Positions 564 to 40,389 of a stretch of 64,000 bases of DNA are shown piece by piece; the stretch's first letter is position 1, and each line of letters opens with the position of its first letter. Under the pieces are notes generated by a model, which was not told where the DNA came from, did no database searches, and saw nothing but the letters and a program-made list of their open reading frames with translations. The stretch covers positions 143,984 to 207,983 of the forward strand of contig JAJDCA010000014.1 of assembly GCA_029261055.1 (NCBI GenBank), read 5' to 3'. The stretch comes from Candidatus Omnitrophota bacterium (GTDB taxonomy: Bacteria > Omnitrophota > Gorgyraeia > Zapsychrales > Zapsychraceae). The position numbers and the translations under genes are program-made.

Positions 564-1531
564 ATAAAATAAATAAAATATTACCTCTGATTGTCATTAT
601 TTTTGTTTTGATTGGCTCCTTATTTTTCAGTGGGGCTTTGTACACCGTGGATGAAACGCAACAGGTTATTGTGACTCGTTTTGGTGAGCCAATGGGCCAA
701 GCGATTACAGAAGCTGGATTACATTTTAAAATGCCGTTTGTTGAAAAGGCGACGTATTTTGAAAAACGACTTCTTCAATGGGACGGTGACCCGAATGAGA
801 TTCAGACGCTGGGAAAGAGATACATCTGGGTCGATACCACCGCCCGCTGGCGTATTGTCGATGCTCTAAAGTTTATGCAAACAGTGCGATCTGAGGTTAG
901 TGCTCAGGCACGGTTGGATGACATTATTGACGGAGCCACGCGCGATGTGATTGCCAGTCACAAACAGATCGAGTCCTTGCGTGATACCAACCGGCTGGTT
1001 GAAGAATTTAAAAAAGGAAAAATAAATGATGTTGATTTTGAGGTACAGCAAACCGCATTTGAGGCAATCAAATATGGGAGGGAAGGATTGAGCCGTATGA
1101 TTTTGAAACAATCCTCCAAAGCCATCTCGGAATTCGGGATTGAACTTGTCGATGTCAGGATTAAACGTATTAATTACATTCAGGATGTCCGCACCAAGGT
1201 GTATGACCGGATGATTTCCGAGCGTAATGCAGCAGCCGCCCGTTACCGCTCCGAAGGACAAGGAAAAAAAGCGGAAATTGAAGGGCAGATGGGGAAGGAA
1301 CTCAAGCGTATTCAGGCCGAGGCTTACAAAACAGCACAGGTCGTTAAAGGGGATGCTGACGCCAAGGCTATTAAAATTTACGCCAGTGCCTACAACAAAG
1401 ATCCGGACTTTTATGCGTTTCTTAAAACGTTAGAAAGTTACAAATACACCATCAATAAAGACACCACGCTTATGCTCACGACAGACAATGAATTCTACGA
1501 ACAGTTGCAAGGGGCAGGTAAGGCGCAATAA
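560..1531 (+). CDS. hflC: HflC (SPFH/band-7, FtsH modulator)
   Basis: 323 aa with an N-terminal TM helix followed by a band-7 domain (YTVDETQQVIVTRFGE). Classic hflK-hflC pairing with a 4-nt overlap. Confidence 0.85.
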   Translation: MNKINKILPLIVIIFVLIGSLFFSGALYTVDETQQVIVTRFGEPMGQAITEAGLHFKMPFVEKATYFEKRLLQWDGDPNEIQTLGKRYIWVDTTARWRIVDALKFMQTVRSEVSAQARLDDIIDGATRDVIASHKQIESLRDTNRLVEEFKKGKINDVDFEVQQTAFEAIKYGREGLSRMILKQSSKAISEFGIELVDVRIKRINYIQDVRTKVYDRMISERNAAAARYRSEGQGKKAEIEGQMGKELKRIQAEAYKTAQVVKGDADAKAIKIYASAYNKDPDFYAFLKTLESYKYTINKDTTLMLTTDNEFYEQLQGAGKAQ

Positions 1532-1540
1532 ACGGTTTTT

Positions 1541-4333
1541 ATGAAATCTGATTCTCTCATCATTCGTGGAGCTAAGGAACATAATTTAAAAAATATTGAC
1601 CTCGTCATACCACGCAATAAGTTTGTGGTTGTGACGGGGTTAAGCGGTTCAGGCAAATCTTCTTTGGCGTTTGATACCATTTATGCTGAGGGGCAGCGGC
1701 GGTATGTTGAAAGCCTTTCGGCGTATGCCCGCCAGTTTTTAGAGCAGTTGAAGAAGCCGGATGTGGAATCCATTGAAGGTCTTTCGCCCACCATTTCCAT
1801 CGAACAAAAAACTACCAGTCGCAATCCTCGTTCAACGGTGGCTACTCAGACAGAAATTAATGATTATTTACGTTTATTGTTTGCCCGTATCGGCACGCCG
1901 TATTGTTACAAATGTGGCAAGGTTATTGATCGTCAAACGATTCAGGAAATCGTTAAGCAGATTTTGGTTTACAAAGAAGGCACCGCTTTATTGCTTTTAG
2001 CTCCGCTTATTCGAGGGCGCAAAGGGGAGTATCGCAATATTGCCAATCAAGTCGCTAAGGCTGGTTTTGCGCGTTTAAGAGTGGATGGTCAGATTTATGC
2101 CGTCGAAGATACGATTCAATTGGACAAATACAAAGTGCATCATATTGAAGTTGTGGTGGATCGTCTTAAGATTAAACCGGGCATAAAAAAGCGGCTTACC
2201 GATTCTATTGAAACAGCGCTTCAGACAGGTCAGGGCATCATGATGGTAGATTTTGATGGCAAGTTTCCTGAAAAACTTTTTAGTGAAAAATATGCCTGTG
2301 TAGATTGTGGTGTCAGTATTACGGAGGTGGAACCGCGCACGTTTTCTTTTAATTCTCCCTATGGGGCGTGTCCGGAATGTAAGGGGCTGGGGACCAAGAT
2401 GGAAATTGATCCGGAGCTGTTGGTGCCGGATATTTCTAAGGCGTGGGTGAATGCGATTGCTCCTGCTAAAAAAGGACGGCGGGGATATTTGATGTATTAC
2501 CGGGCTGTGATGAGGGAATTAGCTAAACTTCATAAAATGGATGCGTATGCGCCATTTGAAGAGTTGAATTCAGAAATGAAAAATGTTATTTTTTATGGTT
2601 CCGAAGACGTGATTTTTGGCAAGCCGTACGAGGGGGTGGCTAATTATTTGGAGCGACTATTTATTGAGACGGACAGCAGTTGGCTTAAAGACGAAATTTC
2701 ACGCTACATGTCGGTTTTGCCCTGTCTTGTGTGTAAAGGTTCACGGTTTAGAAAGGAATCGTTGGCAGTAAAGGTTGCAGGAAAGAATATTGCGGAAGTG
2801 ACTTTATTTTCGATTGAGAAAGCCAAAGAGTTTTTTTCTAATTTAAAGTTGTCTAAAGATAAGGCCATTATTAGCGAGGCGATTTTTAAAGAAATTAATC
2901 GGCGCCTGGATTTTTGTTTGAATGTGGGATTAGGGTATTTGACGTTAGATCGTAAAAGTTCCACGCTTTCCGGCGGGGAGGCGGAGCGTATTCGTCTGGC
3001 GACTCAGGTAGGGTCCGGACTGGTGGGGGTGATTTACATTTTAGATGAACCCAGTATTGGTTTGCATGCCAAAGACAATGAGCGGCTTTTATCTACGCTG
3101 CATGCTTTGCGGGATATGGGGAATACGTTGATTGTGGTTGAGCACGATGAAGAAACGATTCGCCGATCAGATTACATCATCGACCTTGGTCCCGGAGCAG
3201 GCGTTCATGGGGGTGAGGTGACTTACAAAGGCACTGTGGCGGGGGCACTTAAATCTAAGGGTTCCTTGACGGGGCAATATTTGAGCGGCCGGTTAAAAAT
3301 TTCCAAACCAACGACACGGCGCGAGAGTGTTAAGGCGAATCAAATTAAAGTTTTTGGGGCTAAAGAAAATAATCTTAAAAATATTACGGTGAGTGTGCCT
3401 TTGGGCACCTTTACATGTATCACCGGTGTTTCAGGTTCAGGAAAGTCGACTTTGGTGGATGAAATTTTGTACAAAGTTTTAGCGCAGAAAATTTATCATT
3501 CCAAAGAAAAACCTGGAAAACATCGTAAGGTTACCGGGGTTGAGCATATTGATAAAGTGATTGAAGTTGACCAATCGCCGATCGGTCGTACGCCGCGGTC
3601 TAATCCAGCGACGTACACAGGGATTTTTAGCCATATTCGTGATTTATTCAGCCGGTTGCCGGAATCTAAAATGCGGGGATACAAACCCGGACGTTTTAGT
3701 TTTAATGTGAAGGGTGGACGGTGTGAGGCTTGCAAAGGAGATGGAATTTTAAAAATTGAAATGCATTTTTTGCCGGATGTGTATGTGGAATGTGAAGTAT
3801 GCCATGGGGCGAGGTTTACGGAACAGACGTTGGAAGTTGAATTTCACGGGAAAAATATCACGGACATTTTAGGCTTGTCTGTGGTGGACGCTTTGGATCT
3901 TTTTCAAAATATTCCACGTGTTAAGAAAATATTGCAGACCTTAAATGATGTAGGGCTTGGGTACATTAAACTTGGCCAACCGGCAACGACACTTTCCGGT
4001 GGAGAGGCGCAACGGGTGAAGTTGGCGAGTGAATTATGTAAAATGGCAACAGGACGGACATTGTACATTTTGGATGAGCCGACGACAGGATTGCATTTTG
4101 CTGATGTGGAGAAGTTATTGGTTGTTTTACAACGGTTGGTGGATAAAGGGAATACGGTTTTGATAATTGAACATAATTTGGAAGTGATTAAGAATGCGGA
4201 TTATGTTATTGATTTGGGTCCCGAAGGAGGCGATCGAGGTGGTCAAGTCATTTTTGCCGGCTCACCGGAGGCTCTCAGTCAACATAAAACTTCTTACACC
4301 GGGAAGTATTTGCTGGAGGCGCTTAAAAAATAA
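1541..4333 (+). CDS. uvrA: Excinuclease ABC subunit A (UvrA)
   Basis: 930 aa with two ABC ATPase modules (GLSGSGKSSLAFDTIYAEGQRRY and GVSGSGKSTLV), zinc-finger CxxC pairs and LSGGE signature motifs. Confidence 0.95.
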   Translation: MKSDSLIIRGAKEHNLKNIDLVIPRNKFVVVTGLSGSGKSSLAFDTIYAEGQRRYVESLSAYARQFLEQLKKPDVESIEGLSPTISIEQKTTSRNPRSTVATQTEINDYLRLLFARIGTPYCYKCGKVIDRQTIQEIVKQILVYKEGTALLLLAPLIRGRKGEYRNIANQVAKAGFARLRVDGQIYAVEDTIQLDKYKVHHIEVVVDRLKIKPGIKKRLTDSIETALQTGQGIMMVDFDGKFPEKLFSEKYACVDCGVSITEVEPRTFSFNSPYGACPECKGLGTKMEIDPELLVPDISKAWVNAIAPAKKGRRGYLMYYRAVMRELAKLHKMDAYAPFEELNSEMKNVIFYGSEDVIFGKPYEGVANYLERLFIETDSSWLKDEISRYMSVLPCLVCKGSRFRKESLAVKVAGKNIAEVTLFSIEKAKEFFSNLKLSKDKAIISEAIFKEINRRLDFCLNVGLGYLTLDRKSSTLSGGEAERIRLATQVGSGLVGVIYILDEPSIGLHAKDNERLLSTLHALRDMGNTLIVVEHDEETIRRSDYIIDLGPGAGVHGGEVTYKGTVAGALKSKGSLTGQYLSGRLKISKPTTRRESVKANQIKVFGAKENNLKNITVSVPLGTFTCITGVSGSGKSTLVDEILYKVLAQKIYHSKEKPGKHRKVTGVEHIDKVIEVDQSPIGRTPRSNPATYTGIFSHIRDLFSRLPESKMRGYKPGRFSFNVKGGRCEACKGDGILKIEMHFLPDVYVECEVCHGARFTEQTLEVEFHGKNITDILGLSVVDALDLFQNIPRVKKILQTLNDVGLGYIKLGQPATTLSGGEAQRVKLASELCKMATGRTLYILDEPTTGLHFADVEKLLVVLQRLVDKGNTVLIIEHNLEVIKNADYVIDLGPEGGDRGGQVIFAGSPEALSQHKTSYTGKYLLEALKK

Positions 4334-6961: not shown

Positions 6962-7612
6962 ATGGATACTATTTGGGAAATGAGCGCATGGAAGTTGATC
7001 AAAGCAGGGGGGCCGATTATGGTTCCGATTTTATTGTGTTCGTTATTTGCGCTGACGATTATTGTTGAAAAGTTTTGGTATTTTTTCTTAATTAAAACAA
7101 ATGTTCTTCAACTTAAGCAGCAGGTATTTGACTATTTAAAAAATAATAAGATTCCGGAAGCTGTGGAATTATGTGATGCCAACCGTTCGCCTGTAGCTAA
7201 AATTCTTAAGGCCGGAGTTGTGAAATTTGGGTCTTCTCGAGAATCAATTAAAGAGAATATGGAAGATGTTAGTTTATTTGAAATTCCTAAATTGGAAAGT
7301 CGCTTAGGGGCACTGGCGACCATTGCGCATATTTCTCCTTTGTTGGGGCTTTTGGGGACGGTGACAGGTATGGCGGCAAGTTTTCATACGATTCAGATGA
7401 GGGCGGCATCTCTGAACCCTGTCACCCCAGGCGATTTAGCCGGTGGAATCGGCGAGGCCCTTTTGACGACTGTGGCAGGCCTTATGGTCGCCATTCCGAC
7501 ATTTGTTGCCTACAATTATTGTATCAACCGTATTAATTATTTTGTTTTGGAAATGGAGAGAGGGGCAACGGAATTGGTGAATTTTATGAGCCAGACCGCG
7601 GAGGTAAAATGA
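6962..7612 (+). CDS. exbB: MotA/TolQ/ExbB-family proton channel
   Basis: 216 aa with three TM segments and the conserved C-terminal channel region (GLLGTVTGM...GIGEALLTTVAGLMVAIP). Overlaps the following exbD-like gene by 4 nt. Confidence 0.8.
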   Translation: MDTIWEMSAWKLIKAGGPIMVPILLCSLFALTIIVEKFWYFFLIKTNVLQLKQQVFDYLKNNKIPEAVELCDANRSPVAKILKAGVVKFGSSRESIKENMEDVSLFEIPKLESRLGALATIAHISPLLGLLGTVTGMAASFHTIQMRAASLNPVTPGDLAGGIGEALLTTVAGLMVAIPTFVAYNYCINRINYFVLEMERGATELVNFMSQTAEVK

Positions 7613-8013
7613 AATTTAAAAGGCATGCGAAATTAGAACATGGATTAAAGCAGATTGATATTGCCCCGTTGATTGATGTTATTTTTCAGCTTTTAATATT
7701 TTTTATGCTTTCATCTTCTTTTACGTTTCAATCCGGAATTAGCGTAAAGCTGCCCAAAGCCGTAACAAGTGATATTATCAAAGAAGAAAATTTTATTATT
7801 ACCATTACCGGTGAAAATGTTGTTTACTTCAACGGCGTGATTTCCACGTTAAAAGAATTGAAACAAAAGTTAGATCGGCCTAATATTAAAAAAAGACCGC
7901 TTCTTATTAAGGCTGATCGACGGGCATCTGTTGGGCGTATTGTTGACATATGGGATTTGTGTCGGAATTTAGAAATTGAAAAGATTAACATTGCAACGAA
8001 CCAGGAGAGGTGA
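7609..8013 (+). CDS. exbD: ExbD/TolR-family protein
   Basis: 134 aa with a single N-terminal TM (IDIAPLIDVIFQLLIFFM) followed by a periplasmic domain. Translationally coupled to exbB. Confidence 0.8.
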   Translation: MKFKRHAKLEHGLKQIDIAPLIDVIFQLLIFFMLSSSFTFQSGISVKLPKAVTSDIIKEENFIITITGENVVYFNGVISTLKELKQKLDRPNIKKRPLLIKADRRASVGRIVDIWDLCRNLEIEKINIATNQER

Positions 8014-8441
8014 TGATAGGCCGATCTTTCATCGTTTCATTTTTTTTGCATCTTATTATTTTTAGTGCTTTTATTTTTGTCCTTCCCGCCCGTTTTAATT
8101 TCCCTAAACCTATGTTTGTTTTTTTAGGGCCAATTTTAAAAAGTCAAAATATTGTTGGGCTAGGGGCAAAAGGAAAGAAGGCCAAAATAAATGTCAGTCT
8201 ACGAAAGTTTGTTTATGGGGTTCAGGAAAAACGTGCTTTTTCTGTAATGGGTGTAGACAAGAAATGGGCACAGGCATCTAAGGAATTTATTGATCCCCCT
8301 AAAAGATCCTTAAAGTCATTTTTTGGGATGAACGGACAAACACAACATTCTTTAAAAGATAACAGGAAATCAGATTTAAAGGATATCGGTGTAGATATGG
8401 ATACAACGCCCTATCATCCTCTAAAATTTAATTCGCCATGA
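8010..8441 (+). CDS. Hypothetical membrane protein resembling a TonB/TolA N-terminal anchor; no recognisable TonB C-terminal domain
   Basis: 143 aa with an N-terminal TM (FFLHLIIFSAFIFVLP) and then a Lys/Pro-rich segment. Its position as third gene after exbB-exbD matches where tonB usually sits. Confidence 0.35.
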   Translation: MMIGRSFIVSFFLHLIIFSAFIFVLPARFNFPKPMFVFLGPILKSQNIVGLGAKGKKAKINVSLRKFVYGVQEKRAFSVMGVDKKWAQASKEFIDPPKRSLKSFFGMNGQTQHSLKDNRKSDLKDIGVDMDTTPYHPLKFNSP

Positions 8442-8683
8442 TTAAAATTGACATCGTTGTAGCCATATCGATATATTTATCTTTTACATTGGCGCTTGTT
8501 TTTATTTTCTGGATATTTTATACTTGTAATGCAAAGAGTGTTATGGGAGAAAGTAACTATTTGAAGCAATGTGTTTATTGTACGTATGTTTTTTTTGAGT
8601 ATAAAAAAAAGAATGTACTGATTTGTCCAAGATGTAAGAGTTACATAACTATGGAGAAGGATTACGGTAGTACAAAAAAGTAG
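8438..8683 (+). CDS. Small membrane-anchored Cys4 zinc-ribbon protein (81 aa)
   Basis: N-terminal TM helix followed by CVYC...(17 aa)...CPRC. Overlaps the upstream gene by 4 nt. Confidence 0.4.
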   Translation: MIKIDIVVAISIYLSFTLALVFIFWIFYTCNAKSVMGESNYLKQCVYCTYVFFEYKKKNVLICPRCKSYITMEKDYGSTKK

Positions 8684-8695
8684 GTAAAGGAGATT

Positions 8696-9037
8696 GTGAT
8701 AATGTTAAGACAGTTAAAACGTAATAAGCAAGGGGTAGTTTTTATTACAATTCTTACAGTAATTCTTGGGTTAATGATTTTACTTGTAGGTTTTATGAGT
8801 TTAAACGTGAGTCAAGTTATGATTACAGAAAAAGAAATTGATAGTATTCAAGCAGAAATCGTTGGTTTAGGAGCCCTTGGAAGAGCCTTAGTAAGCCAAA
8901 TGTCTGCGACCCCCGCCAATTTAATCACCTACAATCAGATGATTGGCCAAAAAACATTTGATATTATTATTACTAGAGATACTTCTGGTGGCGGAATTAG
9001 TGGTACTGACATGTTAAGTGTTACAGTAGATTATTGA
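8696..9037 (+). CDS. Hypothetical small membrane protein (113 aa)
   Basis: An N-terminal TM helix (VVFITILTVILGLMILLVGF). There is no prepilin cleavage motif and no recognisable domain. Confidence 0.3.
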   Translation: MIMLRQLKRNKQGVVFITILTVILGLMILLVGFMSLNVSQVMITEKEIDSIQAEIVGLGALGRALVSQMSATPANLITYNQMIGQKTFDIIITRDTSGGGISGTDMLSVTVDY

Positions 9038-9231
9038 TCTTCCTTAAAGCCCTTCTTAAATTTGGTTTAATTTTATTAAAATAATAGAGGATGTTATTGA
9101 CAGAGTACTCCTGGTATTGTCTAATTGTAATGGTATTGTAGAGACAAGGCGGAGCTTCATCTGAGACGTGGCAGCATGATGTTTTTACAGCAAGCATTCA
9201 ACCTGTAGCAAGAGTAAGGTTTTTTTAAAAA

Positions 9232-10752
9232 ATGAAAAAGAGTGAAAAACATTTAGGCGTATTTTGGGGCCATAAATCTATCTATTTGGTCGAATCCTCT
9301 CAGGAAAACCCTCAGAAAATATTTTCTGTTCCTTTTTTCCAAGGTGATCAAGAGCCTATGGGGGCTGATATTTTGGGTGTGGCAGGCTCATCGTTTGCAG
9401 TTTTGATACAAGAGTCTTTACGTACGAATAAAATTTCGCCGTGCACTGTTAATTTATCTTTATCTACGAAGGATATTATTTTTCGTTCTTTTGTCATTCC
9501 ATGGATGTCATCCAGTGAAATTAGAGCCGTGGTGGAATTTGAGGGAAGCAAATATGTTCCGTTTGCTTTGGAAGAACTTTCCTATTCGTACCATGCCAGC
9601 ACATTTATAGACGATGGGACAAAACGCATACGGATTATTTTTGTCGCCATAAAAAAAGATACATTAGAGGAATACATAAAAGTGTTGGAACAGGCCTCTT
9701 TGGAGGTTGATCTTACCGAGCCCGCTTCTTTAAGTCTTATGCGCGCGTTAACACTCAAGAATTTAATTCCTCAAGATCAAACGGTAGCTATTTTAGAAAA
9801 AAGTGAAGTCGCGGGAAGAATTACTATCGTTGATCAAGGCGTTCCCCAATTTGTAAGAGAGGTTTTGTTAAAATCCAGTTCTTCGGATCTTGGGGAGGAA
9901 AATTCAGATGATCTTGCCTTCAATTTTCTTAAAGAAATACGAATATCTTTAGATTATTTTAACCGTCAGGATAAACACCTGGAAGTTAAAAAAATTATTT
10001 TAATCACAGAGAATCCCCCAGAAAGTTTATCCAAATATCTAGAAAGTGACCTTGCCATACCTGTTGTTGCATTTAGTGCACAATCTATTTTGGGGGATGA
10101 AAATTTTAGTGAAATAGACTTTCTTAATGCTTATGGCGTTGGGCTAAATGATGATGTGAATTCACAGGTGGCGTTTTCTCTTTCTCAAAAAAAAATAAAA
10201 CCGCTTAGCTTAGCCGATGTAAGTATTAAAAATATAGCTAACTTTAAAGTTTCGATCATCTCTGTGATTATTTTTATCTTAGTTATTGCCGGTGTTTTTA
10301 TTTTTTCTAACAAAGTCTTGGCAGAGCCTAAAAGCAAAATAGAGGGATTGAATCAAGAATTAGGAAGTTTTAAAGATTTTTCTACAGAAAGCTTAAAAAA
10401 ACAAAATCAAGAAATAAGTTTAAAATTAACGGGTTTTAAAAATGTTCAGATGAGAAATGAAGTGGCCTCTTTTTTAAAAATTATCCCAGGGTTGCTTCCG
10501 GAAGGGACATGGATTAAGGATTTTAATTTGGTTTTTCCTAAAACATCAGAAAAAAGGCTGGCCTTAAATTTTTCTGGATATGTTTATTCAGAAAATATTA
10601 ATGAGCAGTTTAGGGTGGTTAATAAATTATTGGAAAGCTTGAAAGCGAATAAAGGTTTTTCTGAATACTTTGAGAATATTGATCTTAAGAAAATGAATTC
10701 TGAAAGGCTACATAATCATGAGGTAACCTTTTTTAAGGTGCAATGCCAGTGA
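9232..10752 (+). CDS. pilM: PilM-like cytoplasmic actin-fold domain fused to a PilN-like TM and coiled-coil segment (GspL-like architecture)
   Basis: 506 aa: about 330 aa of soluble N-terminal domain, then a TM helix (VSIISVIIFILVIAGVFIF), then a coiled-coil and periplasmic region. It is the first gene of an M-O-P-Q-B-C-pilin cluster. Confidence 0.55.
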   Translation: MKKSEKHLGVFWGHKSIYLVESSQENPQKIFSVPFFQGDQEPMGADILGVAGSSFAVLIQESLRTNKISPCTVNLSLSTKDIIFRSFVIPWMSSSEIRAVVEFEGSKYVPFALEELSYSYHASTFIDDGTKRIRIIFVAIKKDTLEEYIKVLEQASLEVDLTEPASLSLMRALTLKNLIPQDQTVAILEKSEVAGRITIVDQGVPQFVREVLLKSSSSDLGEENSDDLAFNFLKEIRISLDYFNRQDKHLEVKKIILITENPPESLSKYLESDLAIPVVAFSAQSILGDENFSEIDFLNAYGVGLNDDVNSQVAFSLSQKKIKPLSLADVSIKNIANFKVSIISVIIFILVIAGVFIFSNKVLAEPKSKIEGLNQELGSFKDFSTESLKKQNQEISLKLTGFKNVQMRNEVASFLKIIPGLLPEGTWIKDFNLVFPKTSEKRLALNFSGYVYSENINEQFRVVNKLLESLKANKGFSEYFENIDLKKMNSERLHNHEVTFFKVQCQ

Positions 10753-10801: not shown

Positions 10802-11407
10802 ATGAATATTAAAGAACTAAGCCAATTTGACGTTAAAGATTTTAAAAATATTGATTTTGAAGAAATTAAGGAGCGTTTTCTTAGCCGGCCAGACTATGCT
10901 ATTGGCGGAACAATCCTTATTGTCGCATTATTTTTGACTTTAACAGTTTACAATAAATATAAATCAGAAAAGGCACATTTAAATCAGCAAATACCTCTTC
11001 TTATTGAAAAATTAGAGGTGGTTGAACATCATAAGAAAATTAAAAAAGAATATGAGGGCTTTGTAAATAGTTTTCCATCTTTTGTTGTTTACGATAAAAT
11101 TATCAATTTATTTTCTAAGATAGCGGCTAAGCACCGCGTTCAAATTACGTCATTTTCTCCAGCTAAACGCGAAGATAATGAATTCATCAGGATGACACAA
11201 GTAACAATGAATGTTACTACAAAAAATTACGATGATTTAGTAAGTTTTATGGAAGCTGTTGGAAATATTTCGGAGGCTCTTAGGCTTACCCATTGGTCTG
11301 GCGGGATGAGGACAGTACAGAGTACTCGCCGGAGGCAACAAACAACAGGTGAAAAAACTATCTGGGCAAATTTTTCAATCGAGGCTGTCCAATTAATTGA
11401 TGAATAA
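10802..11407 (+). CDS. pilO: PilO/GspM-like inner-membrane pilus assembly protein
   Basis: 201 aa with a single TM (AIGGTILIVALFLTLTVY) followed by a periplasmic domain. Position between pilM/N and pilP. Confidence 0.5.
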   Translation: MNIKELSQFDVKDFKNIDFEEIKERFLSRPDYAIGGTILIVALFLTLTVYNKYKSEKAHLNQQIPLLIEKLEVVEHHKKIKKEYEGFVNSFPSFVVYDKIINLFSKIAAKHRVQITSFSPAKREDNEFIRMTQVTMNVTTKNYDDLVSFMEAVGNISEALRLTHWSGGMRTVQSTRRRQQTTGEKTIWANFSIEAVQLIDE

Positions 11408-11822
11408 AATAATCTTTCAATTTTTGATTCTATGTGTGGTATTGTTTATTTCAACAGGGGATGTCCGTGCAGAGAAATATTTAAATCCGTTTAAATCAAG
11501 GTTGCCGGCAATCAAAATACTACCCAAAAAAGGGTTGGATACTACGTCTAGGCCTCATCAGAATGATTTTCGTCCTCAGGGACCTGATAATACTAAGAAT
11601 TTGATTCCGGTTCCACCACAACCGCAACCCGAACTGGAACCAAAGCTAATGCCGGAGCTAACGATTACAGGGCTCATTTGGAATTCGGATCGTCCGCAAG
11701 CGATTATTAATGCAGAAGTTGTAGGCATAGGAGATATTGTTTCAGAAGTGGAAATTATATCCATTAATAAAAAAGGTGTTGCTGTTTCTTTTGATGGCAG
11801 AACAATAACAATAAGTCCATAA
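11400..11822 (+). CDS. pilP: PilP-like periplasmic protein with a signal peptide
   Basis: Signal peptide MNKIIFQFLILCVVLFISTGDVRA, then a Pro-rich linker and a C-terminal beta domain (TITGLIWNSDRPQAIIN...). ATG chosen at 11400 in preference to the TTG at 11397 in the ORF track. Sits immediately upstream of the secretin gene. Confidence 0.45.
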   Translation: MNKIIFQFLILCVVLFISTGDVRAEKYLNPFKSRLPAIKILPKKGLDTTSRPHQNDFRPQGPDNTKNLIPVPPQPQPELEPKLMPELTITGLIWNSDRPQAIINAEVVGIGDIVSEVEIISINKKGVAVSFDGRTITISP

Positions 11823-11903: not shown

Positions 11904-13508
11904 ATGTGTGACCTAATAAAGTTTATCTGGAGGGATTTTATGAAAATAAAGAAAATGATAAAGCTTTTATTGCCTGCAATATTTTTATCTTTTTTAACCT
12001 TTTCAAATGCGTCTGCTTTGTATTTGGATGATCTGATTTATGAAGTAGATAATTCTAAAAAGATTTCCATGGATTTTAAAAATGCTTTATTAAATGATGT
12101 TTTAAAAATTTTTTCTCAACAGTCGGGATTAAATTTTATTGCGACTAATGATATTTCTGAAAAGACGGTTAATTTGTATCTTGATCAAGTCCCGGTTGAG
12201 GAGGCGTTAGAGCGTATTTTATCTGCAAATGATTTAACTTATGAGATAAAGGCTGGAAGCAATGTATTTGTTGTTAAGGCTTTAGACAAACCGGCCAAAC
12301 ACCTTATGACGCGTGTTTATCATTTAAAACATGCCACCGTCCCGTCTTCAAAATTAAATTCAACATTGTCAGGATTTGACAGTGGTGGTGGATCAGACTC
12401 AGGTGGTGGCGGAGAAGAAGGTGGGGAATCTGGTGGGGGGGAATCTGGTGGAGCTGAAGGAGAAAGTGGAGGTTCCTCCGGTGGATCTTCCGGAGGAGGT
12501 CTTGTCGATGCCGTTAGTGCCATTTTAACGGGAGACGGCAAGATTGTTGAGGACCCCAGGACAAACAGTTTAATTATTACAGATATTCCTTCGATGTTTC
12601 CGATGATTGAACAGACCATAGCTCGGTTAGATACCCGAAATCCTCAAATCCTTATTGAAGCAGAGATGTTGGATATTTCTAAGAATGCCACAGATGAATT
12701 AGGCGCTAAATTTGGGAAAGAGGCTGTAAATTTTCATGGAGCTTCTAAGCAATCGGTATTCCCTTTTGATAGTGGAAGTGTCCTTCGGTCACATGATTTT
12801 GCAACGCCCAAGTATACAGCCAGTAAAATATCTTTCGAAAATCTTAATTTTGTTGTAGAGTTTTTACGAAAGCAAACGGATACGAGAAATTTAGCCCGAC
12901 CGCGTATATTAACATTAAATAACGAAACAGCAGAAATTAATATTAAAACAGATGAGACCATAGGTGTGACGACTACAGCAGATTCTTCTGGTGATGGAAC
13001 CAGCTCTCTTGAGACTGTGGAAGCCGAACGTGCGGAAACAGGTGTTACTTTAAAAGTCACGCCTCAGGCGAATATTGAAACGAGGGAAATCATCATGGCT
13101 ATTGAGCCAAAGGTTATTCAGGCTAGAGCAGTATCAAGTGAATTTGAAGTATTTGGGGCTTTTAAAGATCCTGAAGAGCGCGGAGCCAAGGCTATACTAC
13201 GTGTCAGGGATGGAGATACTATTGTTATCGGAGGTTTGTTACGAACCGATATTAATCAAACAAAAACAAAAGTTCCTCTCGTAAGTAGAGTCCCTATTTT
13301 GGGGATGGCTTTTCGGCATAAAAATAAGACAGAAATACAACGTGAGTTGATTATTTTTATCACACCGCATATTCTTGATGAGGCAGTTGCTTTGCATTCT
13401 CAATCTTCTGACAGTTTTCAGAAGATTGTTCGTGAGCAGGATATTCCAAATAAAAAACTTGATCAAATAAACAAAGATTTGTCGTATATTGAAAAAAATA
13501 GATATTAA
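11904..13508 (+). CDS. pilQ: Type IV pilus/T2SS secretin (PilQ/GspD family)
   Basis: 534 aa with a signal peptide, N-domains and a Gly/Ser-rich linker. The C-terminal secretin domain reads RVRDGDTIVIGGLL...VPLVSRVPILGMAFRHKNK...ELIIFITPHIL. Confidence 0.85.
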   Translation: MCDLIKFIWRDFMKIKKMIKLLLPAIFLSFLTFSNASALYLDDLIYEVDNSKKISMDFKNALLNDVLKIFSQQSGLNFIATNDISEKTVNLYLDQVPVEEALERILSANDLTYEIKAGSNVFVVKALDKPAKHLMTRVYHLKHATVPSSKLNSTLSGFDSGGGSDSGGGGEEGGESGGGESGGAEGESGGSSGGSSGGGLVDAVSAILTGDGKIVEDPRTNSLIITDIPSMFPMIEQTIARLDTRNPQILIEAEMLDISKNATDELGAKFGKEAVNFHGASKQSVFPFDSGSVLRSHDFATPKYTASKISFENLNFVVEFLRKQTDTRNLARPRILTLNNETAEINIKTDETIGVTTTADSSGDGTSSLETVEAERAETGVTLKVTPQANIETREIIMAIEPKVIQARAVSSEFEVFGAFKDPEERGAKAILRVRDGDTIVIGGLLRTDINQTKTKVPLVSRVPILGMAFRHKNKTEIQRELIIFITPHILDEAVALHSQSSDSFQKIVREQDIPNKKLDQINKDLSYIEKNRY

Positions 13509-13556: not shown

Positions 13557-15299
13557 ATGGCACATTTAAAATTAGGCGAGATTTTAATTAAGCAAGGACT
13601 CATAACCGAAAATCAGCTTGAAGAGGCCATAGAGATCCAGAAAAAAGATAAAGGGCGTATTGGGGAAATTTTAATTAAGCAGGGGATTATCAGTGAAGAA
13701 AATATGAATGCAGCTTTAGGGACACAGTTAGGGATGCCATATTACACTTCGGATAAACCTGAACTGCTCACGCCTCAACCAGATCAAGGTTTAGAAAAAA
13801 TTGTTCCACCGGATTTTGCCACAAAGAATGGAATTTTACCTTTATCTAAGCAATTGAATTCTTTAACGTGTGCCGTTGTCGATCCATTAGATCTTCTTAT
13901 GTTGGATAATTTAAAAATAATTACAGGTTGTGAAATTAACCCTGTCATTGCTACACGCTCAGCTATTCAAGAAGCAACCAGGGATTTTTACTTTTCAAAA
14001 TCGTCAGATTCAGGAATGCCGACAATGCTGGATAGGGCTGTTGAGAGATCGCATTCAGAAAAAAAGACGGCGGAAATTCTTACACCGCAAAGAAAAACTC
14101 AGGCTACTGCAGAGCTTAGCTTAGATAAGCTTATTGCCCAGGCAGGCGAAGCGCCTGTTATTAAGCTGGTTGATTTAATCATCCGTCAGGCTATTGATGA
14201 AGGGGCTAGTGATATTCATATTGAACCTTTTGAAGATAAAATTTTCTTGCGGTACAGGATTGATGGGCATCTTTACAATATTCCTCCGCCAGCAGCGCAT
14301 TTGCATTTACCTATTGTGTCACGAATAAAAATTTTAGCCAAACTCGATATTGCAGAAAAACGCCTTCCACAAGATGGGGCTATTACGGCTAAATTGGAGG
14401 AGCGATTGGTTGACCTCCGTGTTTCTACGATTCCCACAGTTTGGGGTGAAAAAGTGGTTATGCGTATTTTAGACAAGGGAGCTGTGCCGTTAGAATTAAC
14501 CGGTTTAGGGTTTGACCAAAAACAAATAGATATATTGCGCAAGTCATTGAGTGCACCGTATGGATTGTTTTTTGTCACAGGACCGACAGGGAGTGGGAAA
14601 TCAACTTCTTTGTATGCGGCTGTTAATGAAACGATTGATCCTCGGAAAAATATTATTACGGTAGAGGATCCTGTTGAATATAAAATTGAAGGGATTAATC
14701 AGGTAAATGTTAAGCCAGACATTGGGTTAACCTTTGCAACGGCGCTTAAGGCGTTTTTGCGTCAGGATCCGGATGTTATTATGGTTGGGGAAACGCGAGA
14801 CTTGGAAACAGCTTCTATTTGTGTGCGAGCAGCTTTGACAGGACATTTTGTTTTGAGTACCTTGCATACGAATGATGCAGCCTCAGCCATATCGCGCCTT
14901 ATTGATATTGGCGTCCCTAATTATTTATTAACCCCGTCTTTAGTGATGATTATGGCTCAGCGTTTGGTTCGCAAACTTTGTCCGGAATGCAAGGAGGCTT
15001 ATGAGCCTACAGAAGAACAGCATGGAGGGATTAAATTTAAGAGTGACTTAGTCTATCGTGCCAAGGGATGCGACAAATGTAAACAATCTGGATACAAGGG
15101 AAGACTTGTTGTTGCAGAAGTTCTTTTGGTCAATGATGACATCCGGACATTAATATCGCAAGAAGCAACGTCAGGAGCTATTAAAGATGCCGCCAGGAAA
15201 AATGGGATGGTGACAATTTTTGAATCAGCGCTTAAGTTGGTTGAAAAAGGTATCAGCAGTTATGAAGAGGCCTGTCGTGTTAGTGTTGATGGACAATAA
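13557..15299 (+). CDS. pilB: Type IV pilus assembly ATPase PilB/GspE with an N-terminal MshEN-type c-di-GMP-binding domain
   Basis: Walker A GPTGSGKST, Asp box, His box and a C-terminal tetra-Cys motif (CPECK...CDKCKQSGY). The N-terminus carries two tandem 24-aa motifs, KLGEILIKQGLITENQLEEAIEIQ and RIGEILIKQGIISEENMNAALGTQ. Confidence 0.9.
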   Translation: MAHLKLGEILIKQGLITENQLEEAIEIQKKDKGRIGEILIKQGIISEENMNAALGTQLGMPYYTSDKPELLTPQPDQGLEKIVPPDFATKNGILPLSKQLNSLTCAVVDPLDLLMLDNLKIITGCEINPVIATRSAIQEATRDFYFSKSSDSGMPTMLDRAVERSHSEKKTAEILTPQRKTQATAELSLDKLIAQAGEAPVIKLVDLIIRQAIDEGASDIHIEPFEDKIFLRYRIDGHLYNIPPPAAHLHLPIVSRIKILAKLDIAEKRLPQDGAITAKLEERLVDLRVSTIPTVWGEKVVMRILDKGAVPLELTGLGFDQKQIDILRKSLSAPYGLFFVTGPTGSGKSTSLYAAVNETIDPRKNIITVEDPVEYKIEGINQVNVKPDIGLTFATALKAFLRQDPDVIMVGETRDLETASICVRAALTGHFVLSTLHTNDAASAISRLIDIGVPNYLLTPSLVMIMAQRLVRKLCPECKEAYEPTEEQHGGIKFKSDLVYRAKGCDKCKQSGYKGRLVVAEVLLVNDDIRTLISQEATSGAIKDAARKNGMVTIFESALKLVEKGISSYEEACRVSVDGQ

Positions 15300-15325: not shown

Positions 15326-16558
15326 ATGCCGAAATTTTCTTTTGTAGTTAAGGATCAAGAGGGGAAAGCTTACAAAAATATTGTCGAAGCTGGGAGTCAG
15401 GCTGAACTCGTTGATAAACTTCAGAAACAAGGCTATTTTATTGTTAATATTAAAGAGCATGGTATATCAGCAAGGCCGCAAAAACCAGTTCAGGCAAATG
15501 TTAAAAAGAAATTTGGTCATACGAAAGTTAAGTTAGAGGATTTGTTAACTTTTTCCCGTCAGATGGCGACTATGCTTGAATCTGGGGTTACATTAAGCCG
15601 CAGTTTAGGCGTTATTAAAGCTCAAGTTGAAAGTCAGAAATTATATAACGTTTTAAATGAGGTGCATGCAAGTATTGAGGAGGGGGGATCATTAAGTCAG
15701 GCCTTGGGAAAACATCCTACAGTTTTTAACCAATTTTGGGTTAGTCTCATAGAAGTCGGTGAAGCTTCAGGAACCATTCCGAGTGTATTAGGAAAATTGG
15801 CTTTTTATATGGAGCAGCAGGCAGCATTTAAATCTACAGTTATTTCTGCTATTATTTATCCCGCTATTTTGTTTGCTGTTTCTATGGGGGCTATCAGTTT
15901 TTTTGCTCTTTTTGTTGGCCCAAAATTTGAAGAAATTTTTATTTCTATGAAAACCGAGCTACCTATAGTTACAAAGGTTTTATTGGGACTCTTTAGATTC
16001 TTAAGGTCAAATTTATTGGTGATTACTGGGGTGGTTATTGGGTTTGTTATGGCGTTAAAGTTTTATATACGGACATATCGCGGAAGGCTTCTTTTTGAGA
16101 AACTTGTATTTCGTTTGCCTGCAATAGGGGAAGTGTATAAACAAATTATTGTTGAGAGGTTTGCTTCTCAAATGTCTCTTTTGATTGATGCGGGGGTGCC
16201 TATTCTTTATGCGTTAGATATTGCGGAAAGACTAGTAGATAATAATGTTTGTGCTCTTATTATTAATAATGTGAAAGAAAAGGTCCGGGAAGGTGAGCTT
16301 CTCATGGCCCCGATGGAGCGGAGTGGATTTTTTCCTCCTATGTGTGTCCAGATGATTATGGTGGGGGAAGAAACAGGAGAATTGAGTAAAATGTTTAAGC
16401 ATGTAGCTGCATACTATCAAGATACCGTTTCGACATTTATGAAGCGTTTTGCCACCATTATTGAACCGCTTATGCTGGTTTTTATGGGGGCCATAATCGG
16501 AACTATTGTTGTAGCTATGTTTATGCCAATGTTCAATCTTTCTCAGATAGGAGGGTAA
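15326..16558 (+). CDS. pilC: Type IV pilus inner-membrane platform protein PilC/GspF
   Basis: 410 aa with two GspF repeats and three TM segments; conserved motifs LESGVTLSRSL and MIMVGEETGEL. Confidence 0.9.
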   Translation: MPKFSFVVKDQEGKAYKNIVEAGSQAELVDKLQKQGYFIVNIKEHGISARPQKPVQANVKKKFGHTKVKLEDLLTFSRQMATMLESGVTLSRSLGVIKAQVESQKLYNVLNEVHASIEEGGSLSQALGKHPTVFNQFWVSLIEVGEASGTIPSVLGKLAFYMEQQAAFKSTVISAIIYPAILFAVSMGAISFFALFVGPKFEEIFISMKTELPIVTKVLLGLFRFLRSNLLVITGVVIGFVMALKFYIRTYRGRLLFEKLVFRLPAIGEVYKQIIVERFASQMSLLIDAGVPILYALDIAERLVDNNVCALIINNVKEKVREGELLMAPMERSGFFPPMCVQMIMVGEETGELSKMFKHVAAYYQDTVSTFMKRFATIIEPLMLVFMGAIIGTIVVAMFMPMFNLSQIGG

Positions 16559-16606: not shown

Positions 16607-16850
16607 TCAAGTAGAGTAATAAGGGATAAACAAAGGTAAACTACCTGTGAGGGTGGGGCACAAAACTATAGGGTCCCAAGATTAGTGTTGGGATAGCCAA
16701 GTTGCTACCGATAAGTATCGGTGTGAATCATGTGGACCTATTCTACGAAAGAGGTGGAATAGGTTTATTTTTTGGAAGGGAAGAAAAAGAGGACGTGAAA
16801 AGTAATAAAAACACAAATAAACATAAACACAAATTAGGAGGGAAGTAACA

Positions 16851-17279
16851 ATGGAATTGAGAAAATTAAAATCTAAAAAAAGTGGTTTTACATTACTGGA
16901 AATCATCGTGGTTATTATCATTGTTGGTGTTTTAGCTAGTTTAGCTTTACCGCGATTATTTAATACCATTGAACGAGCTCGATCGACAGAAGCATTTACA
17001 TCAATAGGCGTAATTCGTAAATCAGTTGAAAGATGTCTCTATCAAAATAATGCCGCTTTCTGTGGGAATATGACTAATTTAGATCTTCCTGATCCAGGGG
17101 CAATCCCAGGGGCGCATTTTACGTACACTATTGCTAATGTAGCTTTGCCGAACACTGTGACAGTAAAAGCTACACGTCTTGCTAATGTGGATGGTGGTGT
17201 TGCCACAGATTGGATTCAGCTTAAGGTGGATGGTACGGGTATTTTTCGAACCAGTACAACAATTTATGGTGTAAGATAA
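16851..17279 (+). CDS. pilA: Type IV major pilin (class III prepilin signal)
   Basis: Leader MELRKLKSKKSG, cleavage between G and F in GFTLLEIIVVIIIVGVLASLALP with Glu at +5. 142 aa with a C-terminal Cys pair. Confidence 0.85.
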   Translation: MELRKLKSKKSGFTLLEIIVVIIIVGVLASLALPRLFNTIERARSTEAFTSIGVIRKSVERCLYQNNAAFCGNMTNLDLPDPGAIPGAHFTYTIANVALPNTVTVKATRLANVDGGVATDWIQLKVDGTGIFRTSTTIYGVR

Positions 17280-17295
17280 AAAAGGTAAGGGGTCG

Positions 17296-17778
17296 GTGGA
17301 CTATCCATCGATCCCTTATATAAATTTTATGACAAATAATAAATTAAAGATTTCGAAAAAAGGATTCACCTTGGGAGAATTAATGGTGGTGGTGGTGATT
17401 GTGGGCGTCCTTGTGTCCATCGCCGTACCACAATATGGTGCAGCCATTGAAAGGATGAGGGCAGCTGAGGGGATTCAGATTCTAACCTCCTATTTACACG
17501 CTCAAGAGAGTTTTCGGCTAAGAAATGGTGGGACTTATGCCACAAACCTTCAAATTAATCAATTAGATATAATTTTGCCAACAGGTGCTGGAAGCTATTT
17601 TAATGCGCCTACTATCGCTAGTGCTAATCCAATTGTTAGTATTGCACGAAATGGTACTCAAAATCCGACTCCAAATTATGCGCTTACGATTAGTTCAACA
17701 GGGATTGTTTCCTGTAACGATGGAGGTGCAATGACCACTTGTACAAGATTGGGCTGTTCTGCAGGTGTCTGTAATTAA
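17296..17778 (+). CDS. Type IV pilin paralog
   Basis: KKGFTLGELMVVVVIVGVLVSIAVPQY prepilin N-terminus with a 22-aa leader if translation starts at 17296 (RBS aagggg 6 nt upstream). An alternative ATG at 17329 gives a shorter leader. C-terminal disulfide loop CTRLGCSAGVC. Confidence 0.8.
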   Translation: MDYPSIPYINFMTNNKLKISKKGFTLGELMVVVVIVGVLVSIAVPQYGAAIERMRAAEGIQILTSYLHAQESFRLRNGGTYATNLQINQLDIILPTGAGSYFNAPTIASANPIVSIARNGTQNPTPNYALTISSTGIVSCNDGGAMTTCTRLGCSAGVCN

Positions 17779-17808
17779 GCTAAAAATATTGAAGGGAATG
17801 TTAAGATT

Positions 17809-18246
17809 ATGATAATAAATTTTGTGAAAAGAAAGAAAGCCTTTACAATTACAGAACTTATGGTTTCAGTCATCATTATTGGGGTTATTGCTGGATTTGC
17901 GATACCTGATTATTTACGGTCAGTGCGGCGTGCTCATCAACAAGATATGTCTATGCAGCTCACGGCCTTGCATGCAGCGAGTATGATTTATCAATCTCAG
18001 AATGGAACATTTCTTGTAGAGACTAGTTTGCCATTAAATGGAACACCATCTATTAATAACGATTTGGGCATTAATATTATTTCTACAGATGGGACAAATT
18101 ATTCGTACACAAGTGATGGAACTAATTTTACAGCCACAGCAATTTGGAATTTTTCAACTGGCCCAGTAACTTTTCAAGTAGACCAAAGACCTATTTCAAC
18201 AACATCTGTTCCTCCGAATCCTCAATGTACGACAAACTGTTTATAG
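17809..18246 (+). CDS. Type IV pilin-like protein (Ala at -1 of the cleavage site)
   Basis: KKAFTITELMVSVIIIGVIAGFAIPDY: a hydrophobic N-terminal helix with Glu at +5. C-terminal CTTNC pair. Confidence 0.7.
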   Translation: MIINFVKRKKAFTITELMVSVIIIGVIAGFAIPDYLRSVRRAHQQDMSMQLTALHAASMIYQSQNGTFLVETSLPLNGTPSINNDLGINIISTDGTNYSYTSDGTNFTATAIWNFSTGPVTFQVDQRPISTTSVPPNPQCTTNCL

Positions 18247-18271
18247 TGATTTTTGAAGGAAGAAAGAAAAT

Positions 18272-18616
18272 ATGTTAAAAAATTTAAAAAAAGATGGGTT
18301 TTCATCCTTTGTAGAAATTATGATTTCAGCCGTTGTTTTTGCTATTGCTGCGGTTGGAATGTTTTCTATGGTTTCCAAACTCAAACCAAAGGGAGATGCT
18401 TCTGCTAAAAAATTAGAGGCCATGTATGCCGCTAAGAGCATCCTTGATGAGCTTCGTGGAAGCGTGGATGCCCGTACATGGTTAACAGGACCAAATGATT
18501 TATTGCCGGGTGGCGGTGTTCATTCAAAAACAAGAGGTGACGTTACAGTCGAGTATACTGTTACAGATGTTCCCGGTTCAGACCTTCGTCAGGTGAGTAT
18601 GAATGTGATATGGTAA
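18272..18616 (+). CDS. Minor pseudopilin-like protein
   Basis: KKDGFSSFVEIMISAVVFAIAAVG: a prepilin-like N-terminus (G-F, with Glu displaced to +6). 114 aa. Confidence 0.5.
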   Translation: MLKNLKKDGFSSFVEIMISAVVFAIAAVGMFSMVSKLKPKGDASAKKLEAMYAAKSILDELRGSVDARTWLTGPNDLLPGGGVHSKTRGDVTVEYTVTDVPGSDLRQVSMNVIW

Positions 18617-18721
18617 TACCAAATCCATTTATTAAAGTATCCTATTTGAATGGTGCATTTCTCGTTAAAGCGTCGAGAAATACGAAATTAAAATCGGTAT
18701 TATTTAATGGAATTGGTATAG

Positions 18722-39921: not shown

Positions 39922-40389
39922 TTATTCCTTCCACCCATCAAATAGGTGTTTAAGAAATTTTTCTTTATGTAGGTTGAAGGCATGTTGTAAAATTAATTCT
40001 TGGGTTTCCTCCCCGGTGTTGTAGAAAGAAACGCCAATTTGGTTTTCTTTGCCTTCTTTTTTGGCCCAGAGAATATTTCCATTAAGATTAACGGTTGTTT
40101 TTGGTGATAGGTAAACGGTTAATTTAATTTTTTGGTTGGGGGCAAACTTAGTATCTGAAGTAATACAAGCCCCAGCACAACTTAGGTCTTGGGTATAACC
40201 TTCGTACGTTTCTTTGGTTTTGTCTAATTGATAGGAGACAGCATTTTTAACTTCCCATCGTGGAAAATACCTTTGATCAGAATCAGTTGCGGCATTTTCA
40301 TCTGTTTTATGTGAAGACATATATTCCCCCCTTTCTGGAAAAGGTTTGATGATTGTATGAATAGTTAATAAGAAATAAAAAAAAGCCAC
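39922..40389 (-). CDS. PilZ-domain protein (putative c-di-GMP receptor)
   Basis: 155 aa with an RxxxR motif (RYFPRW) and a DxSxxG motif (DLSCAGA) about 30 aa apart. Convergent with ksgA. Confidence 0.65.
   Translation of the reverse strand: MAFFYFLLTIHTIIKPFPERGEYMSSHKTDENAATDSDQRYFPRWEVKNAVSYQLDKTKETYEGYTQDLSCAGACITSDTKFAPNQKIKLTVYLSPKTTVNLNGNILWAKKEGKENQIGVSFYNTGEETQELILQHAFNLHKEKFLKHLFDGWKE

Follow-up and report, generated by a model that had tools for sequence, protein, structure and literature searches.

A conserved ExbB-ExbD motor module with an apparently TonB-derived adaptor that lacks the TonB C-terminal domain, encoded beside type IVa pilus genes in Omnitrophota

We analyzed a 64-kb stretch of DNA from a “Candidatus Omnitrophota” bacterium (GenBank assembly GCA_029261055.1, contig JAJDCA010000014.1, positions 143,984 to 207,983 of the forward strand), hereafter the window, and focused on a module of five consecutive genes for a Ton/Tol-family motor that precedes a type IVa pilus cluster. 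The module encodes an ExbB/TolQ-family protein, an ExbD/TolR-family protein, a single-pass membrane protein of 143 residues (p143), a membrane-anchored zinc-ribbon protein (p81), and a small pseudopilin-like membrane protein (p113). Sequence comparisons indicate that p143 descends from a genuine TonB and that its folded C-terminal domain was secondarily lost. All five open reading frames (ORFs) lie on the plus strand (Table 1, in window coordinates) and keep orthologues in the same order in >20 independent loci from metagenomes or metagenome-assembled genomes (MAGs), so we regard them as real genes rather than chance ORFs. An earlier, sequence-only reading of the window had described the module as ExbB, ExbD, a TonB-type anchor without its C-terminal domain, a Cys4 protein, and a further small membrane protein, and coordinates, Pfam matches, and inspection of the sequences bear this out.

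Both stator subunits were recognized well above the Pfam cutoffs (ExbB, PF01618, 102.2 bits versus 22.9; ExbD, PF02472, 87.0 bits versus 25.4), and the transmembrane aspartate of ExbD is present in an APLIDVIF motif, as read from the sequence. Among NCBIfam models, ExbB scored higher with TolQ (TIGR02796, 107.2 bits, cutoff 221) than with ExbB (TIGR02797, 69.1 bits), both below cutoff, and the order was the same against PDB (TolQ, 46.6 bits; ExbB, 40.3 bits). The protein is 74 to 84% identical to the 119 closest database clusters among the matches listed, and the named sources of these are Omnitrophota or Omnitrophica. A contig search with the single ExbB sequence returned 5 loci, 4 of them in Omnitrophota MAGs, and scanning metagenomes with an ExbB alignment gave a further set of 80 loci, at identities from 73% down to 31%. 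ExbD is 60 to 82% identical to its orthologues. Across the compared loci, identities were 67 to 84% for ExbB and ExbD, 73 to 78% for UvrA, 66 to 77% for PilB, and ∼30% for p143, which indicates that the two stator subunits are under strong constraint, on par with UvrA and PilB. We relied on amino acid identities for this comparison; a nonsynonymous-to-synonymous (dN/dS) analysis against the closest relative, L098, was discarded, as synonymous sites were saturated (pS, 0.52 to 0.75) and the ratios were meaningless. The most distant ExbB relatives (31 to 44% identity) occur in ordinary contexts of ExbB, ExbD, and a protein of ∼300 residues, with no pilus genes. In one distant metagenome group with ExbB proteins 37 to 40% identical to that of the window, a gene for the ComEC DNA uptake channel (Competence and Lactamase_B domains) lies directly upstream of exbB-exbD (L040, positions 892 to 3123; also L052, L057, and L062), a recurring adjacency of competence and Ton-type stator genes.

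p143 matched no Pfam or NCBIfam model. A word-based homologue search with p143 alone retrieved only p143 itself, and a profile search was therefore needed. A profile built from six positional orthologues recovered 24 proteins, and a profile of these 24 family members matched 438 representative clusters in a set of 1.84 billion proteins, 313 of them at an E value of ≤1e-10. The clusters are ∼145 residues long (nearly all 130 to 175) and matched end to end, and all 438 are too short to accommodate a TonB C-terminal domain. The sequence-only reading had proposed a hidden Markov model search of the 143-residue protein for TonB_C or TolA domains; neither TonB_C (PF03544/PF13103), nor TolA, nor any other Pfam domain was found in any of the 24 members at an E value of ≤1.

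As read from the sequence, the single N-terminal transmembrane helix of p143 carries a serine and a histidine, with S9 found in ≥90% of the 24 members, H13 invariant, and the spacing Ser-x3-His; these residues align with S16 and H20 of a hand-entered sequence of Escherichia coli TonB. Just outside the membrane, p143 has the motif KPxFxFLGSIL, seen family-wide as FLG(S)xL after a near-invariant proline, which is probably the contact with ExbD. The C terminus is a PYKPLRL-type heptapeptide whose P-L pair is invariant in the 24 members. An AlphaFold2 (AF2) model of p143 based on the family alignment showed a helix at residues 2 to 19 with a predicted local distance difference test (pLDDT) score of >90, disorder over the remainder, and a small rise in confidence at the C-terminal motif. 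The model contained no folded C-terminal domain, and the profile of the short family had no match in PDB.

At loci where ExbB is 40 to 57% identical to that of the window, the gene in third position encodes a protein of 206 to 260 residues, and three of these long forms exceed the Pfam cutoff for TonB_C of 24.6 bits (L026, 50.7; L033, 39.6; L037, 53.6). Among the other long forms, there were two weak matches, and those of L015, L016, L018, L019, and L020 have a divergent C terminus with no match. Against PDB, a profile of ten long forms found only structures of TonB C-terminal domains (11 matches; best E = 6.7e-4). Profile-profile comparison with hhalign joined the short p143 family to the long TonB forms at 96.4% probability (E = 1.3e-9) over the first 54 columns. 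When the sequences were aligned jointly, the PYxP of the short form coincided with the PxYP motif that in TonB leads into the C-terminal domain, a correspondence that is suggestive only, because the E. coli sequence had been entered by hand and global alignment can force ends together. p143 does not appear to be a pseudogene, since its length and motifs are kept across hundreds of clusters and p81 follows it with a 4-nucleotide overlap. Lacking the domain that binds TonB boxes, p143 would not allow the module to act as a classical TonB on TonB-dependent receptors.

p81 has one transmembrane helix followed by four cysteines (C45-x2-C48 and C63-x2-C66). Helix and cysteines are kept in 18 of 18 orthologues, including those encoded beside a full-length TonB, and the protein matched no known family in Pfam or NCBIfam. 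Positive residues are in excess downstream of the helix, which suggests that the zinc ribbon is cytoplasmic. p113 also has one transmembrane helix, and the copy in the window had neither a significant pseudopilin match nor an N_methyl match. At the level of the family, 10 of 13 members matched the first ∼60 positions of the T2SS_GspK model NF037980 (best E = 8e-7, 28.9 bits, cutoff 130), 6 matched ComGG, and two homologues matched PilX_N at 20 to 22 bits, under the cutoff of 25.5. A single-sequence AF2 model of p113 placed a long helix before a hairpin at low confidence (pLDDT, 63.5); Foldseek found no match to this model in PDB at an E value of ≤0.001, only noise, and a search of PDB with the p113-family profile found nothing. 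Based on the family-level matches, p113 is probably a minor-pseudopilin-like protein of the GspK/PilX/ComGG type that combines a hydrophobic helix at the N terminus with a small beta domain. Its gene follows the module in the clade with the short p143 form, in the L015-L019 group, and in L027. In L004 (positions 3080 to 3649), p81 and p113 form a single in-frame ORF of 189 residues, which could be either a real fusion or an assembly error. We considered this ORF as Rosetta stone evidence and downgraded it, since in the relatives L092 (6422 to 7010) and L095 (1408 to 1960) the two are separate ORFs that overlap out of frame.

At 14 other loci, p81 is followed by a gene for DUF2582, a 68-residue winged-helix protein (51.6 bits) that is 55 to 84% identical between loci. 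These 14 are relatives with the long form, together with short contig fragments from those lineages, and in six loci (L020, L021, L022, L025, L026, and L032) CutA comes after DUF2582. The gene is absent from all 13 short-form loci, the window included, a distribution that points to joint loss of the TonB C-terminal domain and DUF2582 in the short-form clade.

Upstream of exbB lies a gene for an 831-residue tetratricopeptide repeat (TPR) protein with a hydrophobic N terminus and ∼10 TPR modules of the YbgF/CpoB and BamD types, which is predicted to be periplasmic. Its score with TIGR02795 (tol_pal_ybgF), 256.7 bits against a cutoff of 90.1, is a sum over 10 partial stretches, and TPR_6 (239.7 bits), BamD, and generic TPR models score similarly. 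A homologue occurs upstream of ExbB in every informative locus except L029, including loci without pilus genes, and the conserved core order is TPR protein, ExbB, ExbD, TonB or TonB-derived protein, and p81. Four loci (L002, L026, L033, and L081) have an extra gene between the TPR gene and exbB. In L002 (8124 to 9968), it encodes a homologue, 38% identical, of a 703-residue multipass membrane protein with C-terminal TPR repeats that in the window is encoded just after the pilins and rsmE (20021 to 22132, plus strand), and the gene thus moves within the neighborhood. In L026 (8221 to 9753) and L033 (8484 to 9980), it encodes a protein of ∼500 residues with a signal peptide and an aromatic last residue. 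Proteins of ∼500 residues upstream of ExbB (L026, L033, L045, L081, and L091) were considered as TonB-dependent receptors, but only one had a match, a weak, subthreshold one of the L033 protein to the barrel end of TonB_dep_Rec (18.3 bits), and they stay a lead. L026 and L033 keep a canonical TonB_C, the ∼500-residue gene is absent from every short-form locus, and these proteins may represent a small outer membrane partner that was lost along with the TonB C-terminal domain.

Translational coupling links the genes of the module, although not throughout by the 4-nucleotide overlaps that the sequence-only reading had reported. Such overlaps (ATGA) join exbB to exbD and p143 to p81. At the junction of exbD and p143, the overlap is 4 nucleotides (GTGA) if p143 starts at GTG 8010 and 1 nucleotide (TGATG) if it starts at ATG 8013, as in the public gene call (P0001, 142 residues). 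p81 and p113 do not overlap and are separated by a gap of 12 to 18 nucleotides that contains an AAGGAG ribosome-binding site; ATG 8702 is the likelier start of p113 than GTG 8696.

The same reading had placed the module immediately before pilM/N-pilO-pilP-pilQ-pilB-pilC, and Pfam found PilM_2, PilO, secretin, T2SSE, and T2SSF domains in this cluster, which begins 195 nucleotides downstream of p113. A scan found no terminator-like site between p113 and pilMN. The gap holds a promoter-like site, read by eye and skipped by the scanner, whose rule requires an A at position 2 of the −10 hexamer. In most relatives, the position of the gap is occupied by an HTH_17 gene that heads the pilus cluster upstream of pilMN (L004, L005, L007, L010, L011, L013, L015, L016, L018, L019, and L095). 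The likeliest arrangement, judging from these sequence features, is two transcription units, one for the motor module and one for the pilus cluster, with read-through possible.

We compared gene order around the module at all loci by blastp and tblastn with the window proteins, together with precomputed Pfam calls. The pilus cluster directly follows the module in 16 of 21 informative related loci (L002-L005, L007, L010-L013, L015, L016, L018, L019, L026, L095, and L098), and in the remaining five (L025, L027, L033, L037, and L092) the module is intact but has no pilus genes beside it. A tRNA gene and rsmE, the gene that follows the pilins in the window, come after the module in L027; L025 has CutA, a rhodanese, and a tRNA gene at this place; L033 and L037 have unrelated genes; and the short-form genome L092 has genes for an NTP-transferase, an epimerase, and NeuB. 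A peroxiredoxin gene is also among those that replace the pilus cluster in these five loci. The tRNA genes stand in the position of the pilus cluster (L027, 12982 to 13054, between the pseudopilin-like gene and rsmE; L025, 8882 to 8954), which suggests that the whole cluster was gained or lost as a unit. The module can occur apart from the pilus genes. The adjacency that the sequence-only reading had singled out is therefore widely but not universally conserved, and it stands against a background of general synteny: uvrA is kept almost throughout, and many loci have panC, HPPK, and Asp dehydrogenase genes further upstream (the window itself has hflK/C-like genes there, identified by eye). As unrelated housekeeping genes are equally syntenic, adjacency alone is weak evidence for a shared function.

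No TonB-dependent receptor, TolB, or Pal was recognized in the window (translations read by eye, with Pfam on selected ORFs) or in the 8 kb beyond its 3′ end, in agreement with the earlier reading, and tolB and pal were absent from all related loci examined. A YbgC-type thioesterase-like gene, identified by eye, is found 30 kb from the module (40533 to 40916, plus strand), and a TolC-like OEP gene (59502 to 60974, plus strand; 117.2 bits) precedes an AcrB-type pump gene that lies past the window. An ORF of 1,157 residues (51284 to 54757, plus strand) has, by eye, a CxxxCxxC motif of the radical-SAM type (CVHQCLFC). The window contains no tRNA or rRNA genes.

Table 1. Features of the motor module and the neighboring pilus cluster (window coordinates, except for the last row, which uses those of each locus)
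Feature	Position	Strand	Evidence
uvrA	1541-4333	+	ORF position
TPR protein, 831 aa	4333-6828	+	TIGR02795 and TPR_6 matches
ExbB/TolQ-family stator subunit, 216 aa	6962-7612	+	PF01618
ExbD/TolR-family stator subunit, 134 aa	7609-8013	+	PF02472
p143, putative TonB-derived single-pass adaptor without C-terminal domain	8010-8441	+	Family profile, hhalign
p81, N-terminal transmembrane helix and C-terminal Cys4 zinc ribbon	8438-8683	+	Sequence
p113, pseudopilin-like; 111 aa from ATG 8702 or 113 aa from GTG 8696	8702-9037	+	Family-level GspK match
Promoter-like TTGACA-17 nt-TCTAAT, in the 195-nt gap before pilMN	9098-9126	+	By eye
PilM-PilN fusion	9232-10752	+	PilM_2, 45.4 bits
PilO	10802-11407	+	28.7 bits
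PilP	11397-11822	+	
Secretin PilQ	11904-13508	+	Secretin, 126 bits; STN, 35.7 bits; Secretin_N
PilB	13557-15299	+	T2SSE, 454.7 bits; MshEN, 58.6 bits
PilC	15326-16558	+	T2SSF, 178.9 bits
c-di-GMP-I riboswitch	16625-16709	+	RF01051, 49.7 bits
Terminator-like hairpin	16732-16768	+	Terminator scan
Five pilin or pilin-like genes, first at 16851	16851-19300	+	N_methyl in four of five
DUF2582 gene in related loci	L015 12181-12387; L027 11832-12038; 12 further loci		

The pilus cluster appears to be under cyclic di-GMP (c-di-GMP) control at several levels. Besides the riboswitch ahead of the pilins, which in the relative L003 is also found upstream of a pilin gene (19656 to 19741; 64.1 bits), the window has a PilZ gene (39922 to 40389, minus strand), and the MshEN domain of PilB is of the c-di-GMP-binding type. 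PilQ has an insert of ∼45 residues, low in complexity and rich in Gly, Ser, and Glu, between STN and Secretin_N (residues ∼158 to 208; window positions 12376 to 12528).

Ton and Tol motors pass force derived from the proton motive force (PMF) to partners associated with the outer membrane (excerpt of PMC12215075), and in both, stators of the ExbB-ExbD or TolQ-TolR type drive a single-pass TonB or TolA whose transmembrane helix carries the Ser/His pair and whose periplasmic end grips the partner (excerpts of PMC12215075 and PMC8928145). The module resembles a Ton system in its ExbB and ExbD domains, in a third gene for a single-pass protein with Ser-x3-His, in the tightly coupled order exbB-exbD-tonB, and in the true TonB_C borne by deeper orthologues of p143. 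Unlike a Ton system, it has an adaptor without the TonB-box-binding domain and without a rigid Pro-rich spacer, no TonB-dependent receptor was recognized nearby, and it has p81, p113, and the large TPR protein as additional constant partners. Likeness to Tol-Pal is seen in the TolA-like Ser/His of the p143 helix and the housekeeping-like conservation of ExbB and ExbD; in addition, ExbB scores best with TolQ, though under the cutoff, and the cluster encodes a TPR protein with YbgF-type repeats, to which other TPR models match about as well. In contrast to Tol-Pal, neither TolB, Pal, TolA domains II and III, nor an adjacent YbgC was found at the module; p143 had no Pfam or NCBIfam match to the long helical domain II or to domain III of TolA, and its tail of 110 residues is predicted to be disordered. 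CpoB of E. coli, a TolA-binding product of the tol-pal operon, is small, whereas the TPR protein of the module is encoded upstream and has 831 residues and 10 repeats. Current understanding of Ton and Tol motors centers on folded C-terminal “hands”: TonB_C acts on TonB boxes, and domain III of TolA acts on TolB.

A further comparison is with PocA-PocB-TonB3 (polar organelle coordinator), a set of ExbB, ExbD, and TonB paralogues tied to type IVa pili rather than to import. The Poc genes are split between two loci and do not lie beside pilMNOPQ, TonB3 keeps its C-terminal domain, and we know of no zinc-ribbon or pseudopilin-like partner described for this system. Pseudomonas aeruginosa needs PocAB-TonB3 to express its pili and/or to localize them to the pole, and a contact of TonB3 with the PilQ N0 domain was suggested (PMC5285504); tonB3 also scored in a twitching screen (PMC6321873), and TonB2 is involved in natural transformation in Acinetobacter baumannii (excerpt of PMC8811193). 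The resemblance to AglRQS that the sequence-only reading had drawn is only generic and extends no further than the shared stator family; no Glt-type genes are present here. AglRQS, the gliding motor of Myxococcus, is a TolQR/ExbBD-type stator within an envelope-spanning motility machine with TonB-like single-pass partners, of which GltG and GltJ carry TonB_C-like domains. Among pseudopilins, the hydrophobic alpha-1 and next helix of the p113 family match the start of GspK, and p113 lacks Glu5, as does GspK itself. p113 differs from GspK, PilX, and ComGG in its length of ∼110 residues without a large GspK body, in its subcutoff scores, and in having its gene in the motor operon, apart from the other pilins.

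We tentatively favor a self-contained, Tol-like motor, formed by the five genes and the TPR gene upstream, that serves maintenance or assembly of the envelope or outer membrane and is autonomous of the pilus cluster. ExbB and ExbD would form a proton-driven inner membrane stator, and p143 would be the force-transmitting adaptor, coupled to the stator through its Ser-x3-His transmembrane helix and juxtamembrane FLGSIL. Its disordered periplasmic tail of ∼110 residues, ending in the conserved PYKPLRL peptide, could then pull or remodel an envelope partner other than a TonB-dependent receptor. The likeliest such partner would be the always-adjacent YbgF/CpoB-type TPR protein, by analogy with TolA and CpoB, since short extended peptides are typical ligands of TPR grooves and this is the only periplasmic protein always encoded alongside. 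p81 would be a constant inner membrane accessory with its zinc ribbon in the cytoplasm, p113 a pseudopilin-like protein transcribed with the motor, and the pilus cluster a separate transcription unit, usually but not necessarily adjacent. Several observations weigh against this view. TolB, Pal, and TolA domain III were found neither in the window nor in related loci; the TolQ score of ExbB is far under its equivalog cutoff, and ExbD reaches 54.4 bits with the NCBIfam TolR model against a cutoff of 127.3. The TPR protein, with its 831 residues, 10 repeats, and equal scores with generic TPR models, does not look like a YbgF orthologue. Finally, the pilus cluster stays directly downstream in the 16 loci over a range of ExbB identity from 83% to 49%, and the motor operon ends in a pseudopilin-like gene, both of which fit a link to the pilus better than a purely Tol-like role.

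That link, which the sequence-only reading had raised as a motor that might energize the pilus, could take the form of a dedicated accessory motor resembling PocAB-TonB3, in which the PMF helps to assemble, localize, gate, or retract the type IVa machine; it might act on the N0/STN domain of the secretin or on p113. We consider this possible, though rather unlikely. The adjacency spans deep divergence, but the block preserves uvrA and further unrelated genes as well, five loci retain the module without adjacent pilus genes, the distant ExbB relatives have none nearby, and the cluster has its own HTH_17 gene in most relatives or a promoter-like site in the window. The last gene of the operon is GspK/PilX-like and remains beside the motor also at loci without an adjacent cluster (L027 and L092), but the p113 of the window lacks a significant pseudopilin match, and the in-frame fusion of p81 and p113 in L004 is absent from its relatives L092 and L095 and could be an assembly error. 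We rejected the STN domain of PilQ as evidence for a TonB contact, since STN/N0 is general to secretins and nothing about it is specific to this one. Short or divergent TonB C termini are found mostly in pilus-adjacent lineages among the loci fetched, and PocAB-TonB3 and TonB2 offer precedents. The case that the motor powers the pilus is circumstantial. In a more specific version, which we regard as unlikely, a Ton-type motor has been rewired into the type IVa machine, with the p143 peptide engaging secretin N0/STN, PilP, or p113 and p81 completing the complex. If this were true, the PMF would help in gating the secretin, in retracting the pilus, or in uptake via PilQ, and ultrasmall, possibly host-attached bacteria would have a PMF-driven accessory pilus engine.

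Two further readings were considered. The module could be a nutrient-import Ton system whose transporter is encoded elsewhere and is contacted by the p143 C-terminal peptide rather than by a folded domain. The canonical ExbB-ExbD-TonB sets with TonB_C among deeper orthologues, the ∼500-residue proteins before exbB in L026 and L033 with their one weak receptor match, and the retained PYxP that aligns with TonB PxYP would fit. Import is improbable, however, as the TonB-box-binding domain is absent from all 24 members and all 438 clusters, no receptor gene was recognized in the window (mostly by eye) or in the 8 kb beyond it, and the ∼500-residue gene is missing wherever p143 is short; in addition, a preprint on 176 complete Omnitrophota genomes reports that no canonical TonB-dependent receptor or sus architecture flanks its giant-protein loci (10.64898/2026.06.07.730766). 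The module could instead relay the state of the envelope through p81 to a cytoplasmic DNA-binding partner, loosely like FecA-FecR-FecI; this partner would be DUF2582 in relatives and may have been lost or replaced in the clade of the window. Such signaling accords with a predicted cytoplasmic zinc ribbon that is invariant beside TonB in all lineages, with the conserved winged helix-turn-helix protein after p81 in 14 loci, and with the joint loss of DUF2582 and the TonB C-terminal domain. The window clade keeps ExbB and ExbD strongly constrained without DUF2582, no sigma or anti-sigma domain was found, and p81 belongs to no known family, and we consider this relay, which is built wholly on inference, very improbable.

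A Ton/Tol-family motor that is possibly linked to a pilus is of a kind already known. Three traits appear to be undescribed in the literature searched: a TonB whose C-terminal domain is consistently lost, a zinc-ribbon protein as a constant partner, and a pseudopilin-like member of the operon. The main text of the main Omnitrophota survey discusses type 4a pili and an adjacent F-type ATPase, with no mention of ExbB or TonB (PMC10066038), and a 2026 preprint mentions TonB-domain proteins only among genes that flank giant-protein loci (10.64898/2026.06.07.730766). The families of p143, p81, and p113 reach the cutoff of no Pfam or NCBIfam model and consequently go unannotated in hundreds of genomes. 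Since type IVa pili have been proposed to serve attachment in epibiotic or predatory Omnitrophota (PMC10066038), a motor encoded beside the pilus genes is a candidate extra energy input for these pili, one that is not mentioned in the literature searched. Throughout the lineage, ExbB and ExbD are constrained like UvrA, whereas all that is left of the adaptor is a transmembrane helix, a tether predicted to be disordered, and a motif of seven residues; p81 and p113 have been added. An active module would mean that PMF-driven force is deliverable without a canonical domain, and it would offer a minimal natural system for asking what a stator needs.

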